Assembly: GCF_003334765.1 (NCBI RefSeq)
Contig: NZ_QOWT01000001.1
DNA: 64,000 nt
Reading direction: 5' to 3' (one strand)
Source: Escherichia coli
GTDB lineage: Bacteria; Pseudomonadota; Gammaproteobacteria; Enterobacterales; Enterobacteriaceae
Part shown: in pieces, positions 8,405-20,439 of the stretch
Numbering within the stretch: the stretch's first letter is position 1
Layout of the letters: the number at the start of each line of letters is the position of its first letter
Notes under the pieces: generated by a model
Seen by the model: the letters and a program-made list of their open reading frames with translations, nothing else
The model's database searches: none
Told to the model about the DNA's origin: nothing
Translations under genes and position numbers: made by a program

Positions 8405-9337
8405 ATGTGGTCAGAATATTCACTCGAAGTTGTTGATGCGGTAGCGCGTAATGGTAGTTTTAGCGCTGCGGCACAGGAGCTGCATCGCGTTCCTTCTGCG
8501 GTCAGCTATACCGTGCGTCAGCTGGAAGAGTGGCTGGCGGTGCCGCTCTTTGAACGACGGCACCGTGATGTGGAGCTGACCGCTGCTGGAGCGTGGTTTC
8601 TCAAAGAAGGGCGCTCTGTTGTCAAAAAAATGCAGATCACCCGCCAGCAATGTCAGCAGATAGCGAACGGCTGGCGCGGTCAGTTAGCTATCGCAGTGGA
8701 TAATATTGTCAGGCCAGAACGTACACGGCAGATGATCGTTGATTTTTATCGCCATTTTGATGATGTCGAACTTCTTGTCTTTCAGGAAGTGTTCAACGGT
8801 GTCTGGGATGCGCTTTCCGACGGGCGCGTGGAACTGGCGATTGGCGCAACACGCGCGATTCCGGTAGGCGGTCGTTATGCCTTCCGGGATATGGGGATGC
8901 TAAGCTGGAGTTGCGTTGTTGCCAGTCACCACCCGCTGGCGTTGATGGATGGCCCGTTCAGCGATGATACGTTGCGCAACTGGCCGTCGTTGGTGCGCGA
9001 AGACACCTCGCGAACGCTACCTAAACGTATTACCTGGTTGCTGGATAACCAAAAAAGAGTTGTCGTGCCTGACTGGGAATCATCGGCAACCTGTATCTCG
9101 GCAGGATTATGCATAGGGATGGTGCCAACACATTTCGCCAAACCGTGGCTTAATGAGGGGAAGTGGGTAGCATTAGAACTGGAAAACCCCTTTCCGGATT
9201 CGGCATGTTGTCTGACATGGCAGCAAAATGATATGTCGCCTGCGTTAACCTGGTTGCTTGAGTATCTCGGCGATAGTGAGACGCTGAATAAGGAGTGGCT
9301 GCGGGAGCCGGAAGAGACTCCCGCAACGGGTGATTAA
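8405..9337 (+). CDS. punR: LysR-family transcriptional regulator YdhB/PunR (310 aa)
   Basis: ORF-track 310 aa; N-terminal LysR HTH ([26 protein letters not shown]); divergent from its transporter target. Confidence 0.9.
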
Positions 9338-10359: not shown

Positions 10360-10403
10360 TCCATTTCACTCCAGACCCTAACTTCAGCTCCTGCAAAATC
10401 GCA

Positions 10404-10419
10404 AGGTAAACGTTTGCCT
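10404..10419. promoter_or_regulatory. Putative PurR operator (PUR box) in the purR leader
   Basis: aggtaaacgtttgcct; palindromic core AAACGTTT with flanking G/C as in PUR boxes; about 45 nt upstream of the purR start codon. Confidence 0.5.
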
Positions 10420-10657
10420 TTACACACCTTACGCACAACAAAAGTGTTGCGGTACGCCGGAAAAACGACACGGAGCGTCAGGAAGGGGTCAATGGCCAGT
10501 ACGCAAATAGTGTAAGCGTGGAATTTTGGCCGATCTTGACGAAAAGGGGAAGTGGTAAAAACACTTATCATTATAAATGACGGGAGATTTTTTCATCACA
10601 GTGTGTAAAAATGCGTAATATCACTTTTTGTGTGGTAATAAAAAAGGAGAAAACTTG

Positions 10658-10747
10658 ATGAGCACCGACCTTAAATTTTCACTGGTAACAACGATTATCG
10701 TCCTCGGTTTGATCGTAGCCGTGGGTTTGACTGCCGCGCTGCACTGA
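10658..10747 (+). CDS. ynhF: Small membrane protein YnhF (29 aa)
   Basis: Not in the ORF track (too short). atg at 10658 preceded by aaggagaaaactTG RBS; encodes MSTDLKFSLVTTIIVLGLIVAVGLTAALH, a single TM helix, which I recall as K-12 YnhF. Confidence 0.75.
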   Translation: MSTDLKFSLVTTIIVLGLIVAVGLTAALH

Positions 10748-10912
10748 TTTCCTCTCGAGGGAGCGCGTTCTCCCTCGCATCTCCTTCCTGTTTGTTAGCA
10801 AAATGGCAAAAGTGTTTTCTCTTTTTGTTATTTTCATTTTTTTGTGATTGCTGTCATGCTTTCGCCACTTTAATGAATATCGCGTAATGACGCGAAGAGG
10901 TGGAGATAAGGC

Positions 10913-14174: not shown

Positions 14175-14522
14175 ATGAGCACCACTATCGAAAAAATCCA
14201 ACGCCAGATTGCTGAAAACCCGATCCTGCTGTACATGAAAGGTTCACCGAAACTGCCGAGCTGCGGTTTCTCTGCCCAGGCAGTCCAGGCGCTTGCCGCA
14301 TGTGGCGAACGTTTTGCCTATGTTGATATTCTGCAGAATCCGGACATTCGTGCGGAACTGCCGAAATATGCTAACTGGCCGACCTTCCCGCAACTGTGGG
14401 TTGACGGCGAGCTGGTCGGCGGTTGTGATATCGTGATCGAAATGTATCAGCGTGGCGAACTGCAGCAGCTGATCAAAGAAACTGCCGCTAAATACAAGTC
14501 TGAAGAGCCGGACGCGGAATAA
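14175..14522 (+). CDS. grxD: Monothiol glutaredoxin Grx4 (115 aa)
   Basis: ORF-track 115 aa with CGFS active site (KGSPKLPSCGFSAQAVQAL). Confidence 0.95.
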   Translation: MSTTIEKIQRQIAENPILLYMKGSPKLPSCGFSAQAVQALAACGERFAYVDILQNPDIRAELPKYANWPTFPQLWVDGELVGGCDIVIEMYQRGELQQLIKETAAKYKSEEPDAE

Positions 14523-14538
14523 TCCGTCCTGCAATACT

Positions 14539-14572
14539 GACGGATGCGAACGGGCATCCGTCAGTCCTTTCT
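14539..14572 (+). terminator. Intrinsic-terminator-like hairpin after grxD, shared with the convergent lhr
   Basis: gacggatgc gaacgg gcatccgtc followed by agtcctttctct; sits between the grxD stop and the lhr stop. Confidence 0.55.
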
Positions 14573-17500
14573 CTATCCCCAATCCAGCCCTTGTGGCGAA
14601 CTTGAAAATCCCGCCTCACGCAGCAGCGTAAACATCGGCGTTTGCCGGACCGGTAGATCATTCACTTCTGTTAGCGTAAAGCGCAGCCGTGGTTCGCGAC
14701 GCAGTGCGGTAGTCAGCGCGTGGAAAACCTCTGGGGCGAGTAATTCCTCTTTTTCCTGCCAGACCAGCATTTTTTTGCCACCTTGCGCCAGATAGAGTAA
14801 CAATTTGCCGCCAGAAACGACCACCAGCGCACCCGCCCGACGCGTTGGAACCAGCGTTGCCGGATGTGCAGGCCAGGGCAGAAGATTTCCCCACACATTA
14901 GCCGGATCGTTGGCAGAGAGCGCCACTGGTGTATAGTGGCGCGTTTGCGTGGCTTGTGTCGCCAGATCGCGCAATCGGTCAATAGTCAGACGTTCAGCGA
15001 ATTGCGCGCCACCCAGACCTTCTACAAAACGACCTCGCATAATTCGCCCGGAGTCTTCCATACTTCGACAAAGCGTTTGCATCGATGGAAACCCGCCAGG
15101 GATATTTTCGGCTATCACCGCCTGACGACTGATGATGCCGTAGCGGTCGAGCATATTTTCCGCCAGCGCCAGCATCCTTTCGGTATCGTTTAGTGGCTCC
15201 ACCTGCAATAACGACCAGCGTCCAGCCAGATTTGGTGTGTTGTAAGATACCCGCGGCGAGACGGGTTGCGCATAGACAGGACGTCCACGACGAGCCCGGT
15301 GACTGCGGCGAGTTGAGGTGCGTGCGTTGGAACTGCTGCGGGTGAGGGCGCGTAACGGTGCCCAAATGTCGCTGGTGATGACGCCTTGCCAGACCAGCGC
15401 CCATAACGCCTCTTGCAGGGCAGAGAGATCAACCGATTCGCCGATTTTGTCGCGTATCCGTTGGCTGATTTGTTGTGCAAACCAGGCTCCTCCGTCAGCC
15501 AGAACAGCGACTATCGCTTGTTGCAGCGCCGAACGATTCGCCTGATCCGCTTCGGCGGGAGTGAACGATTCTGCAGCATATTCCTGTAGATGCAGTGCCA
15601 CCAGGCCGTCATCTTCACCCAGTTTTTTTTGCCCCGACCAGATAACCGCACCGGTTGCCAGTAATTCATCGAGCATTTCTGACGAATAGTCGCGTACGCG
15701 GGCAGGCAGGATCTGGCTTTCCCAGAGTGAGGCGGGTAAACCGACTCCGGCAAGCTGTTCGATCACCCGCATCACGCCATCTACGCCCTCATAAACGCCT
15801 GGCGATGTTGAGGCAAAGAGCGCCGGGCTACCATCGGTGGCGGGTAATACGCCCTGACGTTCCAGCAGCAATCGCGCATAGGTCGTGGCTGCAACGGGAC
15901 GCGTCGCTTCTCTGGCGGCTTGCAGCGAGCGCAAACGCAGACGACGAAATACTTCATCGCTCACCCAGATGTCTTGTTGCAGATTCATCACCAGACCCTG
16001 TTCACGCAGTTGCTGAAGCTGCTCTTCGACAATGGCAATACCGAGACTAAACTCATGAGCCAGTTGTTCAGCCGTGACCAGAGCATGAGCCCGGAGATAG
16101 CGCAGAAAGAGGTCGCGAAGCGGGTAACTGACTCTATGTAAATAAATCTCTGGCAATGACTCTGGTAGTCGTACGCCGAGGGCATCACGCAGCCTGGCGG
16201 CATCATCCATACAGGCAAGACGCTCCTGTCCGCTAATCATCGCTGGGAAGATTCGTTTTACTGCAAGAAGATTTTCCAGATACGACGCAACCTCTTCACT
16301 GCTGCCTGTATGCCGTTGCGCCAGGTCTTCAACGGTCATTGGCCCCAGTTCGCGCAGCAGGTCGAACAATCCTTCTTCACCTTTCGCTCTTCTGCCAGGA
16401 GCCAGTCGTTGCAACTCTTCTTCCACCTGGCGAATGACCTGCGGGTCGAGTAATTCCCCCGGATCGACCTGTCCGAGTAGATTGCGCAGTAACTCGCTGT
16501 CCAGCGACAGTACGGATGCCCGGCGCTCTGCCAGCGGGGCGTCGCTCTGGTACATAAATTCCGCGACATAGCCGAACAATAAACTTGTGGCGAAAGGCGA
16601 GGGCGTAGTGGTCGTTACATCGGATATTTGAATTTCGCCACCGTTCAGGCGACGCATCAAACGTTCCAGTGCGGGAAGATCATAAACATCTTGCAGACAT
16701 TCGCGTAGGGTTTCGAGAATGACCGGAAAATCCGGATATCCCTGAGCGATTTCCAGCAACTGACTGGCGCGCAGCCGTTGTTGCCAAAGCGGGGTGCGAT
16801 GGCCCGGAGTGCGCCCCGGCATTAATAATGCCCGCGCGGCGCATTCGCGAAAACGGGCGGCGAAAAGTGCCGAGCTGCCTACCGCCTCGCGGACAATTTG
16901 CAGCAACTTTTCTGGTTCAAACAAAAAAATCGCGGCATCGGGCAATTTACCATCGGTGTCAGGAATACGTGCAACAATGCCGTCATCACTGGCGACCACC
17001 GACGCGTCAGCGCCCCATAGCGCATGTATTCGCCCGGCAATCGCCACCGCCCAGGGTTCATGCACCCGTCTTCCATAGGGAGAGTGCAAAATAATACGCC
17101 AGTCACCAATTTCATCACGGCACCGTTCGAGGACCAGATGGCGACTCCCCGGAACGATGCCCGTCGCGTTGCGCTGCTCCTCAATCAACCCCTGAATATT
17201 GGCGATCGTATTTTCTTCTGCCAGCCACGGGGGAATAGTCCCGGAAAAGAACGCGCCATCCGCCAGCAAATGAAGAAAATCGCCGATCATCTCGCCTAAT
17301 TCAGCCGGACGTCCGTTACCTTCACCACGCCAGAAGGGGAGCCGGGCAGAACGACCCGGAGCAGGAGTCACAATCACCTGATCGCGGGTGATTTGCTGGA
17401 TCCGCCATGAGGTAGCGCCGAGAGTGATAATATCGTTCACCCGCGACTCATATACCATCTCCTCATCCAGTTCACCCACCCGCCGCGAACCGGCCTTTTC

Positions 17501-19189
17501 TTCACCTTCGGGTAATAACACGCTATACATGCCACGATCCGGAATGGTGCCGCCGCTGGTAACCGCCAACAATTGAGCGCCAGGTCGGGCGGTCAATATC
17601 CCGGTCTCCCTGTTCCAGACCAGTTTGGGGCGAAAAGCAGAAAAATCGCCAGAGGGATAGCGCCCGGAAAGCATATCCAGCGTGGCGTCAAAAACACGTC
17701 TTGGCAGATCTTTCCACGGTGCGGCACGGCGTACGCGGGAGTACCATTCGTCTACCTGTAATGCATCCATCGCCGCGGCGGCAACGGTTTGCTGCGCAAG
17801 GACGTCGAGAGGATTATGCGGTGGTGTCAGGTTTTCCAGCCTGCCTGCGAACATACACTCTACAATGACTGCGGAATCGACTAAATCACGCCGGGTACGG
17901 GGGAAAAACAGCCCTTTAGATACACCGCCAACCTGATGTCCGGCGCGACCAATGCGTTGTAACCCACTGGCAACAGAAAGCGGCGTTGCCACCTGAATCA
18001 CCAGATCCACCGCGCCCATATCAATCCCCAGTTCAAGACTGGAGGTTGCGACCACGCAGCGTAATTCACCCGATTTCAGCGCCTGTTCGGTGATTGCTCG
18101 TTGTTCTTTAGAGACGGAGCCGTGGTGTGAGCGGGCAATAAAAACGTCGCTACTTTGTACACGGTTAGAGGTTGCGCCGGAGGTCGACTCGAAATGGGCC
18201 GCATCAACGGCGATAGACGGGGAACGCTGTAAGCGTGCGGCGTAAAGCTCATTTAATCGTGCCGTCAGTTTTTCCGCCAGCCCCCGCGAATTAGTAAAGA
18301 CAATGGTCGAGCGATGGCGCAACACTTCATCAAGGATACCCGTTTCAATATATGGCCAGATGGAGCCTTCCCGGCCGGCATGGCTGTCTTCGCCGGTGCC
18401 GCTGGCGACCGATGAGACATCATCCATATTGGCGACCGGTACGACAATTCGTATCTGCGGATGGCGCATTGCGGGCGGGTTGACTACCGTAACCGGGCGA
18501 TCGCCACCAAGAAATGCTGCCACATCGCTGGCTGAGCGCACAGTGGCAGAAAGGCCAATTCGCTGTGCTGAGGTGTGGAGCAGCGCATCGAGCCGCTCCA
18601 GACTTAACGCCAGATGCGCACCACGTTTACTGCCCGCTACCGCGTGGACTTCATCAATAATTACCGTTTCGACGCCGCGTAGCGTTTCGCGCGCGCGGGA
18701 GGTCAGCATCAGATAGAGTGATTCGGGTGTGGTGATCAGAATATCCGGCGGATTACGGGTGAGTTTGCTGCGTTCCTGTGCAGGCGTATCGCCAGTACGG
18801 ATCCCTACGCGAAGATTGACTTCCGTTTCGCCGCGCCGCCGCCGTTCATCGGCAATACCCTTCAACGGGATCTGCAAGTTGCGCTGAACGTCGGTGCCCA
18901 GGGCTTTTATCGGTGAAATATAGAGGATGCGTGAGGTTTTACGCTTATGCGCCTCGCGGGTATCTTCGCCGCCTTCGCGGAAGAGCCGATCGAGGGCGTA
19001 GAGAAATGCTGCCAGCGTTTTCCCGGAGCCGGTCGGTGCAATCACCAGCGCATGTTCGCTTCGCGCCGCCACATGCCAGGTTTGCGGCTGGACAGCGGTC
19101 GGCTGTTTAAAGGCGCGAAGAAACCAGTCGCGGGTCGCCGGTGAAAACACGTCCGGCAGGAGCGATGAAGGGTCTGGATTATCTGCCAT
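14573..19189 (-). CDS. lhr: Lhr, large ATP-dependent DEAD/DEAH-box helicase-related protein (1538 aa)
   Basis: ORF-track 1538 aa; Walker A (PTGSGKT), DEVH box, helicase C motifs in the N-terminal third; length matches K-12 Lhr. Confidence 0.95.
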   Translation of the reverse strand: MADNPDPSSLLPDVFSPATRDWFLRAFKQPTAVQPQTWHVAARSEHALVIAPTGSGKTLAAFLYALDRLFREGGEDTREAHKRKTSRILYISPIKALGTDVQRNLQIPLKGIADERRRRGETEVNLRVGIRTGDTPAQERSKLTRNPPDILITTPESLYLMLTSRARETLRGVETVIIDEVHAVAGSKRGAHLALSLERLDALLHTSAQRIGLSATVRSASDVAAFLGGDRPVTVVNPPAMRHPQIRIVVPVANMDDVSSVASGTGEDSHAGREGSIWPYIETGILDEVLRHRSTIVFTNSRGLAEKLTARLNELYAARLQRSPSIAVDAAHFESTSGATSNRVQSSDVFIARSHHGSVSKEQRAITEQALKSGELRCVVATSSLELGIDMGAVDLVIQVATPLSVASGLQRIGRAGHQVGGVSKGLFFPRTRRDLVDSAVIVECMFAGRLENLTPPHNPLDVLAQQTVAAAAMDALQVDEWYSRVRRAAPWKDLPRRVFDATLDMLSGRYPSGDFSAFRPKLVWNRETGILTARPGAQLLAVTSGGTIPDRGMYSVLLPEGEEKAGSRRVGELDEEMVYESRVNDIITLGATSWRIQQITRDQVIVTPAPGRSARLPFWRGEGNGRPAELGEMIGDFLHLLADGAFFSGTIPPWLAEENTIANIQGLIEEQRNATGIVPGSRHLVLERCRDEIGDWRIILHSPYGRRVHEPWAVAIAGRIHALWGADASVVASDDGIVARIPDTDGKLPDAAIFLFEPEKLLQIVREAVGSSALFAARFRECAARALLMPGRTPGHRTPLWQQRLRASQLLEIAQGYPDFPVILETLRECLQDVYDLPALERLMRRLNGGEIQISDVTTTTPSPFATSLLFGYVAEFMYQSDAPLAERRASVLSLDSELLRNLLGQVDPGELLDPQVIRQVEEELQRLAPGRRAKGEEGLFDLLRELGPMTVEDLAQRHTGSSEEVASYLENLLAVKRIFPAMISGQERLACMDDAARLRDALGVRLPESLPEIYLHRVSYPLRDLFLRYLRAHALVTAEQLAHEFSLGIAIVEEQLQQLREQGLVMNLQQDIWVSDEVFRRLRLRSLQAAREATRPVAATTYARLLLERQGVLPATDGSPALFASTSPGVYEGVDGVMRVIEQLAGVGLPASLWESQILPARVRDYSSEMLDELLATGAVIWSGQKKLGEDDGLVALHLQEYAAESFTPAEADQANRSALQQAIVAVLADGGAWFAQQISQRIRDKIGESVDLSALQEALWALVWQGVITSDIWAPLRALTRSSSNARTSTRRSHRARRGRPVYAQPVSPRVSYNTPNLAGRWSLLQVEPLNDTERMLALAENMLDRYGIISRQAVIAENIPGGFPSMQTLCRSMEDSGRIMRGRFVEGLGGAQFAERLTIDRLRDLATQATQTRHYTPVALSANDPANVWGNLLPWPAHPATLVPTRRAGALVVVSGGKLLLYLAQGGKKMLVWQEKEELLAPEVFHALTTALRREPRLRFTLTEVNDLPVRQTPMFTLLREAGFSSSPQGLDWG

Positions 19190-19281
19190 TAACGCTATTC
19201 CCCGTGAATATCATGCAGGATGCGTGGAATAGCCTCACTATAGATGCCTGAATCATTGCATGTCATCAGGCATCGACTCGA

Positions 19282-19929
19282 TTACACCTCTTCGGCGGCA
19301 GATAGCGGCCAGCCTCCCAGACGTTTCCAGCGGTTGACGATTTCACAAAACAGCACAGCAGTGCGTTCGGTGTCGTACAGCGCGGAGTGCGCCTGGGTGC
19401 TGTCGAAGTCCATGCCAGCGGTCTGGCAAGCCTTTGACAATACGGTTTGTCCGAGTGCCAGCCCGGCCAGTGCAGCAGTGTCAAAAGTGGCGAAAGGGTG
19501 GAACGGGTTACGTTTCAGTGAGGCGCGTTCTGCGGCGGCCATCATAAAGCTGTGATCAAAATTGGCATTGTGCGCCACCATAATGGCGCGGTTACAGCCG
19601 CTCGCTTTAATACCTTTACGTACAACTTTAAAAATTTCGTGCAGCGCCTCGTATTCGCTGACCGCGCCGCGATCGGGATCGTTCGGGTCAATGCCGTTGA
19701 AGGCGAGGGCTTCTGGTTGCAAATTTGCGCCGACAAATGGTTCGACGTGGAAATGTAATGTGGTGTCCGGCATCAGCCAGCCTTGTTCATCCATTTTCAG
19801 GGTGATGGCGGCAATCTCAAGCAGCGCATCGGTTTTGGCGTTAAATCCGGCTGTTTCAACATCGATCACAACAGGATAAAAACCACGAAAACGGTCGCAC
19901 AGACCGGTAAGTTGAGCGTTATCGGACAT
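19282..19929 (-). CDS. rnt: RNase T, DEDDh 3'-5' exoribonuclease (215 aa)
   Basis: ORF-track 215 aa; exonuclease motif [11 protein letters not shown]; immediately upstream of lhr on the same strand. Confidence 0.95.
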
Positions 19930-20031
19930 CTGATTCTCTTAATACGGATAAATTGCAGCGCGCATTATGACAAATATTACTTGTCGATGCAGTAAAGATG
20001 CGGGCGCGATGAGTTCACGCCCGGCAGGAGA

Positions 20032-20439
20032 TTAGTTGCCCAGACCGCGACCGGCGTCTTTCTCTTCGATTAACTCAATTTTGTAACCGTCCGGATCTTC
20101 CACAAACGCGATAACCGTAGTACCGCCTTTTACCGGACCCGCTTCACGGGTCACGTTACCCCCGTTTTGACGGATTTTTTCGCACGCTTCAGCGGCGTTA
20201 TCTACGCTAAGCGCGATGTGACCATAAGCAGTGCCGAGTTCGTATTTATCCACGCCCCAGTTGTAGGTCAGTTCAATCACCGCTTCTTCGGTTTCCGGGC
20301 CGTAGCCAACAAACGCCAGTGAGTATTTGTATTCCGGGTTTTCGCTGGTACGCAGCAGTTTCATGCCCAGCACTTTGGTATAAAAATCGATGGAGCGTTG
20401 CAAATCGCCAACGCGCAGCATGGTATGAAGAAGACGCAT
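20032..20439 (-). CDS. gloA: Glyoxalase I (lactoylglutathione lyase), 135 aa
   Basis: ORF-track 135 aa beginning [26 protein letters not shown], canonical GloA. Confidence 0.95.

Follow-up and report, generated by a model that had tools for sequence, protein, structure and literature searches.

The rnt-lhr gene pair of Escherichia coli: a known operon and its probable origin by lineage-specific insertion of lhr

The genes examined here lie side by side on the minus strand of the window, a 64,000-nucleotide stretch of E. coli DNA that belongs to a K-12-like chromosome. The pair and its parts are as follows.

19282..19929, minus strand: rnt, encoding RNase T, a DEDDh 3'-5' exonuclease of 215 aa (ORF list, ATG start; TIGR01298)
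19190..19281, minus strand: rnt-lhr intergenic gap of 92 bp, between co-directional ORFs
14573..19189, minus strand: lhr, encoding a protein of 1538 aa (ORF list, ATG start; NF007284)
16559..19189, minus strand: Lhr-Core, lhr codons 1-877, comprising RecA1, RecA2, a winged helix, and domain 4 (Pfam, motifs, PDB 5V9X)
14573..16558, minus strand: Lhr C-terminal domain, codons 878-1538 plus the stop codon, comprising winged-helix modules and an AlkZ-like fold with Asp-1536 (Pfam, PDB 7LHL)

The two identities, the shared orientation, and the 92-bp gap, all proposed in an earlier note on this DNA, were borne out by the ORF list and by profile searches. The 215-aa product matches TIGR01298 with 382.9 bits against a cut-off of 246.2, and the DEDDh residues D23, E25, D125, H181, and D186, which we take to be the catalytic positions of RNase T, are all present in the translation. 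The 1538-aa product matches the NF007284 equivalog from end to end (3412.8 bits; cut-off, 1496). E. coli chromosomes that carry the annotations gloA, rnt, lhr, and grxD share the stretch from 14400 to 20100 with 100% identity, and all 5426 complete E. coli genomes match it. The rnt-lhr pair is an already known E. coli arrangement, described in 1995; the account of the K-12 operon is reportedly that of Reuven, Koonin, Rudd, and Deutscher in J Bacteriol.

The Lhr-Core, whose boundary (aa 1-877) was taken from PMC8053096, gives Pfam matches to DEAD (residues 31-218), Helicase_C (349-417), WH_Lhr (446-616; E = 2e-47), and DEAD_assoc (679-867; E = 6e-62), and PDB 5V9X matches the protein with E = 3.5e-293. 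Helicase motifs I, II (DExH), III, and VI were recognizable on reanalysis and are intact, with GSGKT at 54-58, DEVH at 179-182, SAT at 214-216, and QRIGRAG at 411-417; Asp-1536 is also present. The earlier note had called the C-terminal extension poorly understood, a description that is out of date. The domain search that it proposed for the C-terminal half recovers winged-helix modules (WH2_Lhr, WH3_Lhr, and WH4_Lhr, E = 3e-19 to 7e-28) and a weak AlkZ-like match (E = 0.0011), and PDB 7LHL aligns with residues 15-1479. SF2 motifs, the Core architecture, and a winged-helix/AlkZ-like (HTH_42) C terminus together place the protein among the full-length bacterial Lhr proteins of the “bLhr-HTH” group. 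The C-terminal domain of the mycobacterial homologue has been solved by cryo-electron microscopy (7LHL), revealing a tetramer and AlkZ homology, and the 1538-aa E. coli protein is an ATPase and a 3'-5' translocase and helicase (PMC8053096). It also has a uracil-DNA glycosylase activity that depends on Asp-1536, as judged from a D1536A mutant, and the damage phenotypes of an E. coli lhr deletion that the earlier note wished to see are likewise published: the deletion strain is sensitive to AZT and H2O2, and mitomycin C sensitivity is absent (PMC10953399). By this published work on the E. coli protein, the Lhr encoded here is taken to be a translocase/helicase and a uracil-DNA glycosylase. Most of the points first listed as open were thus already in print: a structure for the C-terminal domain, a glycosylase activity, and phenotypes of the deletion.

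The gap between the genes and the two ends of the unit contain the following predicted elements.

20001..20023, minus strand: terminator-like hairpin after gloA, CGGGCGTGAACTCATCGCGCCCG plus CATCTTTACT, the upstream boundary of the rnt-lhr unit
19243..19274, minus strand: hairpin 1, directly 3' of the rnt stop codon, with a 9-bp stem, GAUGCCUGA/UCAGGCAUC, and a 14-nt loop (folding)
19237..19266, minus strand: sigma-70 promoter-like match, ATGACA-18 nt-TATAGT, a candidate internal lhr promoter (10 of 12 matches)
19194..19233, minus strand: hairpin 2, formed between GCUAUUCC and GGAAUAGC, with most of the lhr Shine-Dalgarno sequence inside it (folding)
14536..14565, unstranded: hairpin with a 12-bp stem between the convergent genes lhr and grxD (terminator scan, Term-seq)

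The gap differs at only 4 of 92 positions from that of a divergent Escherichia (L009) and at 6 of 92 from that of E. albertii, all of them outside both predicted stems, and it is more conserved than the synonymous sites of the flanking genes (dS of 0.19 to 0.49). A 57-nt stretch (19225-19281) occurs as one copy per genome in 5426 of 5426 E. coli genomes. E. coli, L009, and E. albertii have the same hairpin 1 stem, the sole change falling in the loop; C. amalonaticus and E. fergusonii have other hairpins at this position. Because hairpin 1 is not followed by a U tract and the Term-seq table has no 3' end at this place, it was rejected as an intrinsic terminator; it may be a 3'-end stabilizer or a processing site for the rnt mRNA. 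A loose resemblance to REP-type repeats was also considered and was dropped since the E. coli sequence is single copy in each genome. The C. amalonaticus hairpin is a closer REP look-alike than hairpin 1. The Shine-Dalgarno sequence of lhr is GGGGAA (19203..19198), and its pairing within hairpin 2 would be expected to dampen lhr translation. In the E. fergusonii equivalent, the stem CUGUUCC/GGAACAG is changed on both sides, and the gap fold has a z-score of -2.84; fold z-scores for the E. coli gap are weak, from -0.8 to -1.4.

An abstract of 1995 by Reuven reportedly states that rnt and lhr are co-transcribed, and that paper, along with one by Huang and Deutscher from 1992, is said to hold the primary transcript evidence. 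Co-transcription is likewise reported, with Reuven 1995 cited, in PMC8301817. The sequence around the genes is consistent with this: they share a strand, they are separated by a short gap (92 bp), and no intrinsic terminator was found in 19190-19281 by a scan for stems followed by U tracts or by folding. In Term-seq data (PMC7815308 supplement), one 3' end follows gloA and another coincides with the hairpin between lhr and grxD. The former, a “primary” gloA end at MG1655 1728279(+), has the sequence of the gloA hairpin and appears in two listed data sets, and the latter, a strong grxD end at MG1655 1733706/7(-), has the sequence of the lhr/grxD hairpin. That hairpin, retained in L009 and E. 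albertii but different in E. fergusonii and C. amalonaticus, is the grxD terminator and probably the end of the rnt-lhr transcript as well. The same table assigns no 3' end to rnt, an absence that low expression could partly explain, and a look-up in the table of the SMRT-Cappable-seq supplement gave no rnt or lhr entries. With a gap lacking an intrinsic terminator, a hairpin after rnt lacking a U tract, and no Term-seq end for rnt, the co-transcription suggested in the earlier note is likely.

A different reading is that lhr is transcribed mainly alone, from a promoter in the gap, with hairpin 1 as the effective end or a processing site of the rnt message, so that the operon is one in name only. 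The earlier note had pointed to a terminator and an independent promoter within the gap as the signs of separate transcription: the terminator is absent, and a promoter-like match lies at 19266..19237. Neither its hexamers nor the stem of hairpin 1 differ among E. coli, L009, and E. albertii, whereas loops vary, and if lhr is an insertion (see below) a promoter could have come along with it. However, the region contains 8 promoter-like sites where 5.0 ± 2.8 are expected by chance, and because the count is near chance frequency the single match in the gap is weak; nor do the gaps of E. fergusonii and C. amalonaticus align with the site. These observations, the lack of both a U tract and a Term-seq end at the close of rnt, and the co-transcription reported in the literature make full independence of lhr highly improbable. 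Since a promoter-like site lies in an unusually conserved gap, lhr may also have a promoter of its own, which would more likely supplement read-through than make lhr fully independent.

The arrangement downstream of rnt was compared in 80 species with rnt, all Enterobacterales, and in 12 Lhr loci. In 67 of the 80 species grxD lies directly downstream of rnt and convergent with it, across a gap of 10 to 221 bp (median, 64); lhr occupies this position in just 2, other DNA in 6, and in 5 grxD is absent from the rnt locus, in one of them since the locus ends 47 bp past rnt. Inspected species without lhr have a bidirectional terminator in the rnt/grxD gap, which in seven inspected Enterobacteriaceae is AAAAAAAGCGACC..GGTCGCTTTTTT, and a simple pattern for such a terminator matches 47 of the 67 gaps. 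E. coli has no bidirectional terminator at its rnt/lhr/grxD junction. Because most relatives have rnt followed by convergent grxD across such a terminator, lhr looks like an insertion that replaced it. Other genera carry at this junction a fimbrial operon, a pheP-type transporter gene, an omptin gene, or type VI secretion genes. The G+C content of lhr is 54 to 59%, compared to about 51% in rnt, gloA, and nemA.

Among the sampled loci, only Escherichia and some Citrobacter have lhr next to rnt. At 7 of the 12 Lhr loci, lhr is found away from rnt; these homologues (58 to 73% identity) are from Phytobacter palmae, Yersinia enterocolitica, Pectobacterium betavasculorum, Brenneria, two Pseudomonas, and Stenotrophomonas. 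In P. betavasculorum (L055) rnt adjoins grxD, elsewhere than lhr. A link between lhr and electrophile-response genes of the nemR/gloA type was considered, but it is suggested by a single case, that of Stenotrophomonas, where a NemR-like TetR gene and one for DJ-1/PfpI lie upstream of lhr. Adjacency of rnt and lhr is not kept in distant genomes that have both genes, as it would be in a conserved cluster. PMC7437997 called lhr-rnt a conserved genome context, a view that the 80 rnt loci and 12 Lhr loci contradict. Where lhr is present it is under purifying selection, with dN/dS of 0.03 to 0.09; the E. albertii value was discarded as an artefact, the longest lhr ORF in that draft assembly being only 932 aa. 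In the comparison of Escherichia with Citrobacter, Lhr alleles show 70 to 76% identity, with saturation at synonymous sites.

The interior of lhr is missing in 1041 of the 5426 complete E. coli genomes, 1040 of which share one deletion junction.

14691..19088, minus strand: segment that holds the deletion, with an imperfect 10-bp repeat at each end, GCCGCAAACC (19088..19079) and GTCGCGAACC (14700..14691)

The loss between the repeats amounts to 4388 bp (4.4 kb) and leaves an out-of-frame remnant of lhr. The 1040 genomes (~19%), which include Nissle 1917 and ST131, keep an intact rnt. No literature on lhr loss in phylogroup B2 was found in the papers searched. The shared deletion, present in about one-fifth of complete E. 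coli genomes, is a natural knockout for testing the role of Lhr in vivo.

The earlier note had judged functional coupling of RNase T and Lhr plausible from their adjacency. Since the pairing stems from a gene insertion found only in Escherichia and a few of its relatives, adjacency is no evidence of joint function, and the hint is weakened further by the loss of lhr in genomes that retain rnt. One could still propose that the two proteins form a repair module, a split counterpart of the WRN-type fusions, in which Lhr translocates 3'-5' and unwinds or excises uracil, RNase T trims the resulting 3' ends, and the operon exists for their joint production. RNase T does trim structured DNA 3' ends and digest single-stranded DNA with deaminated bases (PMC3942315), Lhr removes uracil and its loss sensitizes cells to H2O2 and AZT (PMC10953399), the genes are co-transcribed by the literature and Term-seq, and PMC7437997 draws attention to the pairing. 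Against this, the pairing is missing in 78 of the 80 species sampled via rnt and at 7 of the 12 Lhr loci, and 1040 E. coli genomes combine an intact rnt with a deleted lhr. PMC8301817 reports neither a known protein-level interaction nor a conserved neighborhood for Lhr with this C-terminal domain, and the neighbors of lhr away from rnt are TfoX_N, YjbR, UvrA-like, or DNA glycosylase genes rather than a DEDDh exonuclease. We regard such a module as unlikely. There is a similarly slim chance that RNase T and Lhr cooperate in Escherichia as a helicase/DEDDh-exonuclease repair unit of two proteins, working on 3' ends at uracil or other deaminated-base intermediates under replication stress, and that the operon has been kept for that purpose; if so, a measurable difference in tolerance of oxidative damage or in the rate of C-to-T mutation would be expected of the lineage without lhr, to which Nissle 1917 and ST131 belong.

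We consider it very probable that rnt-lhr is simply the known two-gene operon, its pairing an accident of history produced by insertion of lhr rather than an old functional module. Transcripts would start upstream of rnt, past the gloA terminator, traverse rnt, read across the terminator-free gap into lhr, and stop at the hairpin shared with convergent grxD. The two conserved gap hairpins probably set the rnt:lhr expression ratio: hairpin 1 may shield the 3' end of the rnt message or mark it, and hairpin 2, over the ribosome-binding site, would keep Lhr scarce. As for its origin, lhr would have entered between the convergent genes rnt and grxD in an Escherichia ancestor and probably moved to or from some Citrobacter by recombination via the conserved flanks, in one insertion or several. 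The insertion would have replaced the ancestral bidirectional terminator and so have exposed lhr to read-through from rnt; later, a single lineage of E. coli would have lost lhr by deletion. New here, and not found in the papers searched, are the origin of the pairing by insertion, the replacement of the terminator, and the deletion of lhr in 1040 genomes. It follows as a caution that rnt-lhr adjacency, a lineage-specific insertion, should not be cited as conserved context linking Lhr to RNase T.

Compared to the E. coli K-12 operon, the locus described here is the same, with no difference within the window; the published Lhr length (1538 aa), motif II Asp179/Glu180, and Asp-1536 are all matched. 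WRN-type fusions resemble rnt-lhr in joining a helicase to a DEDDh 3'-5' exonuclease, an analogy drawn in PMC3942315, but the resemblance is one of parts only: WRN carries its RecQ-family helicase in a single polypeptide, whereas RNase T and Lhr are two separate proteins in an unconserved pairing and have no known interaction (PMC8301817). The Lhr-Core/MPE clusters of the Pseudomonas putida type (PMC8301817) also have an Lhr-family helicase gene next to a nuclease gene; unlike rnt-lhr, they encode a helicase without the C-terminal domain and a metallophosphoesterase as the nuclease, and the pairing is kept in 276 of 319 genomes, compared to 2 of 80 rnt loci for rnt-lhr. The mycobacterial lhr-nei2 operon (PMC9841417, PMC11323726) encodes, as does that of E. 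coli, a full-length Lhr with Core and C-terminal domain (matches to 7LHL and 5V9X), and it likewise places Lhr in an operon with another nucleic-acid repair enzyme, although the partner is the Nei2 glycosylase rather than RNase T. That operon is induced by mitomycin C, and PMC8053096 ascribes lhr induction to the PafBC pathway; the M. smegmatis lhr deletion is crosslinker sensitive, whereas that of E. coli is not mitomycin C sensitive. The Stenotrophomonas locus, with a Fapy/H2TH glycosylase gene near lhr, resembles the mycobacterial type.

On the minus strand of the window the gene order is nemR-nemA-gloA-rnt-lhr, and the main features of this locus are as follows.

20023..20001, minus strand: G+C-rich hairpin after gloA, upstream of rnt
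19929..19282, minus strand: rnt, a 215-aa ORF, RNase T
19274..19243, minus strand: hairpin 1, a 9-bp stem directly 3' of the rnt stop codon
19190-19281: the 92-bp rnt-lhr gap
19233..19194, minus strand: hairpin 2, GCUAUUCC paired with GGAAUAGC, enclosing most of the lhr Shine-Dalgarno sequence
19189..14573, minus strand: lhr, a 1538-aa ORF, long ATP-dependent helicase
14175-14522, plus strand: grxD, convergent with lhr and followed by mepH and sodB

The co-directional pair with its short gap, which the earlier note had described, is borne out by the ORF list, and this gene pair was already described in 1995. The 215-aa product matches NCBIfam TIGR01298, RNase T, at 382.9 bits (cut-off 246.2), and the 1538-aa product matches NF007284 across residues 1-1538 at 3412.8 bits (cut-off 1496). 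Positions 14400-20100 show 100% identity to E. coli chromosomes on which gloA, rnt, lhr, and grxD are annotated, and a match is present in each of the 5426 complete E. coli genomes. Elsewhere in the window, Rfam gathering-score matches are to the enterobacterial sRNA STnc550 (10360-10750, plus strand, 396.5 bits) and to two tRNA genes and the antisense RNA family HPnc0260, which overlaps one tRNA (1487-1649, plus; 1614-1768, minus).

The rnt-lhr pairing arose by a lineage-specific insertion, with lhr taking the place of a terminator. RNase T was scanned for in one genome per species (GTDB), and the best 80 loci, all from Enterobacterales, were searched by tblastn for Lhr and the neighboring proteins.

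What follows rnt in the best 80 loci
67 of 80: convergent grxD directly downstream, gap of 10-221 bp (median, 64)
6 of 80: other DNA separating rnt and grxD
5 of 80: no grxD inside the locus; one of these ends 47 bp past rnt and is uninformative
2 of 80: lhr (an E. coli-like genome and E. albertii)

Every lhr-less genome inspected has a bidirectional terminator between rnt and grxD: it is AAAAAAAGCGACC-loop-GGTCGCTTTTTT in seven genomes, from Citrobacter, Kluyvera, Enterobacter, Phytobacter, and Pluralibacter, and one Yersinia genome has a similar terminator of different sequence there; a simple pattern for such a structure matches 47 of the 67 rnt-grxD gaps. Neither this terminator nor a remnant of it is found at the E. 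coli locus. Inserts between rnt and grxD include a chaperone-usher fimbrial operon (locus L042), a pheP-type permease with a second, EamA-type transporter (L038), an omptin (L024; a same-size ORF in L040 is a candidate only), and, immediately 3' of rnt, type VI secretion genes, with TssF and TssG confirmed (L035; L036 has matching ORFs and is probably alike). Such varied inserts mark the rnt/grxD junction of Enterobacteriaceae as an insertion hot spot, with lhr among its cargoes. The insertion site sits just 3' of rnt, at about 8640-8800 in most of loci L011-L087.

The G+C content of lhr is 54-59%, versus about 51% in rnt, gloA, and nemA. Citrobacter amalonaticus and E. fergusonii have the same gloA-rnt-lhr/grxD order, with Lhr 73-74% identical. 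The E. fergusonii locus (L004:2942-12226) is a mosaic. Its nemR, nemA, and gloA have almost the same sequence as in E. coli (dS 0.04-0.16), and its rnt, lhr, grxD, and mepH show Citrobacter-level divergence (dS above 1.2; Lhr 73.5% identical). This mosaic dS pattern implies that a recombination breakpoint lies between gloA and rnt, and it fits recombination via conserved flanks, which would move the lhr insertion between lineages.

Among the E. coli genomes, a 4-kb probe from inside lhr was positive in 4385 of 5426. In Nissle 1917, lhr is a 229-bp out-of-frame remnant behind an intact rnt and 92-bp gap (L001:3174-3402); the deletion junction lies between the imperfect 10-bp repeats GCCGCAAACC (19088..19079) and GTCGCGAACC (14700..14691), with 4388 bp removed. 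A 120-nt probe spanning this junction is contiguous in 1040 of the 5426 complete genomes, including an O25b:H4-ST131 strain, which points to one deletion in a common ancestor. Both Nissle 1917 and ST131 are members of phylogroup B2. No mention of a deletion common to these 1040 genomes was found in the papers searched. Where present, lhr is under purifying selection (dN/dS 0.03-0.09). Two E. coli strains have an lhr interrupted by IS1 (hits H7 and H8), truncated Lhr variants of 1243-1449 aa are recorded in Shigella, and the longest lhr ORF in the E. albertii NBRC 107761 draft is 932 aa (L010:2541-7148), possibly through assembly error.

The pairing, a lineage-specific insertion that a fifth of E. 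coli genomes do without, gives no support to the functional link between RNase T and Lhr that the earlier note had called plausible but not established; a cooperative helicase-exonuclease role is unlikely.

Co-transcription of the two genes, also proposed there, is well supported. PMC8301817 cites a 1995 report of it. The abstract of that 1995 rnt-lhr paper reportedly agrees. No stem with a trailing U tract was found within the gap. The Term-seq tables (PMC7815308 supplement) assign no 3' end to rnt; they place a gloA 3' end at hairpin 20023..20001 (MG1655 1728279) and a strong grxD 3' end at hairpin 14536-14565. Separate transcription had been tied to a terminator and an independent promoter within 19190-19281: the terminator is absent, and a promoter-like match is present (ATGACA-18-TATAGT, 19266..19237, 10 of 12, overlapping hairpin 1). 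An extra internal lhr promoter is possible but unproven, since such matches occur near chance frequency in the region (8 found versus 5.0 +/- 2.8 expected) and the site has no alignment in E. fergusonii or C. amalonaticus. Compared with this gap, the divergent Escherichia L009 has only 4 differences in 92 positions and E. albertii only 6, and none of them touches either hairpin stem; dS in the flanking genes is 0.19-0.49. The second stem reads CUGUUCC/GGAACAG in E. fergusonii, with both sides changed. Hairpin 1 may shape the rnt 3' end, and hairpin 2 would reduce lhr translation. A table in the PMC7815308 supplement lists a significant antisense site inside the lhr 3' end, downstream of the grxD terminator hairpin, at MG1655 1733486(-); it converts to about 14790 on the window plus strand and may be the end of grxD read-through into lhr antisense.

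The DEDDh residues of RNase T are intact. Pfam domains assigned to Lhr begin with the following.

Residues 31-218: DEAD
Residues 349-417: Helicase_C
Residues 446-616: WH_Lhr
Residues 679-867: DEAD_assoc

On re-analysis, helicase motifs I (GSGKT, 54-58), II (DEVH, 179-182), III (SAT, 214-216), and VI (QRIGRAG, 411-417) were all found intact, and Asp-1536 is present. The C-terminal extension, previously called poorly understood, is no longer obscure: residues 860-1538 contain WH2_Lhr, WH3_Lhr, and WH4_Lhr with a weak AlkZ-like match, and the solved mycobacterial structures 7LHL and 5V9X match Lhr strongly. The mycobacterial C-terminal domain forms a homotetramer and comprises five winged-helix modules plus a beta-barrel, with a sub-domain homologous to the glycosylase AlkZ, and E. 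coli Lhr is an ATPase, 3'-5' translocase, and helicase (PMC8053096). The DNA damage phenotypes that had been called for are already published: lhr deletion confers sensitivity to H2O2 and mildly to AZT, and none to mitomycin C (PMC10953399), and is synergistic with radA (PMC4357459). Most of the earlier open points on Lhr are thus answered in the literature.

Beyond this lineage, Lhr keeps other company. Phytobacter palmae Lhr (73% identical) has unrelated genes on either side, and proteins 58-60% identical are encoded elsewhere in Yersinia enterocolitica, Pectobacterium betavasculorum (where rnt adjoins grxD at a separate locus, L055), Brenneria, two Pseudomonas, and Stenotrophomonas. A TfoX_N gene directly precedes lhr in four of the six distant loci, with YjbR genes nearby. 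The near-same TfoX_N-lhr cassette across different orders suggests that it is a mobile repair cassette. In Y. enterocolitica, Pectobacterium, Pseudomonas cyclaminis, and Brenneria (L005:4643-9797, L006:4643-9797, L007:4647-9758, and L090:3639-8761), lhr starts 4-12 bp past the TfoX_N-domain gene; YjbR and SnoaL-like genes each occur in 4/4 of these loci and an AraC-type regulator in 3/4, and a UvrA-like ABC gene is found in Brenneria, beside TfoX_N, and in Pectobacterium, further downstream. Our survey agrees with the published statement that Lhr proteins of this C-terminal type lack a conserved neighborhood (PMC8301817) and conflicts with the description of lhr-rnt as a conserved context (PMC7437997). 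Upstream of the Stenotrophomonas lhr (L008:3482-11988) are a NemR-like TetR gene (TetR_C_13) and a DJ-1/PfpI gene, loosely reminiscent of the nemR-gloA genes ahead of E. coli rnt-lhr. Downstream of it are genes for a 3-methyladenine glycosylase, a DUF72 protein, and a Fapy/H2TH glycosylase, and these glycosylase genes recall the mycobacterial lhr-nei2 operon.
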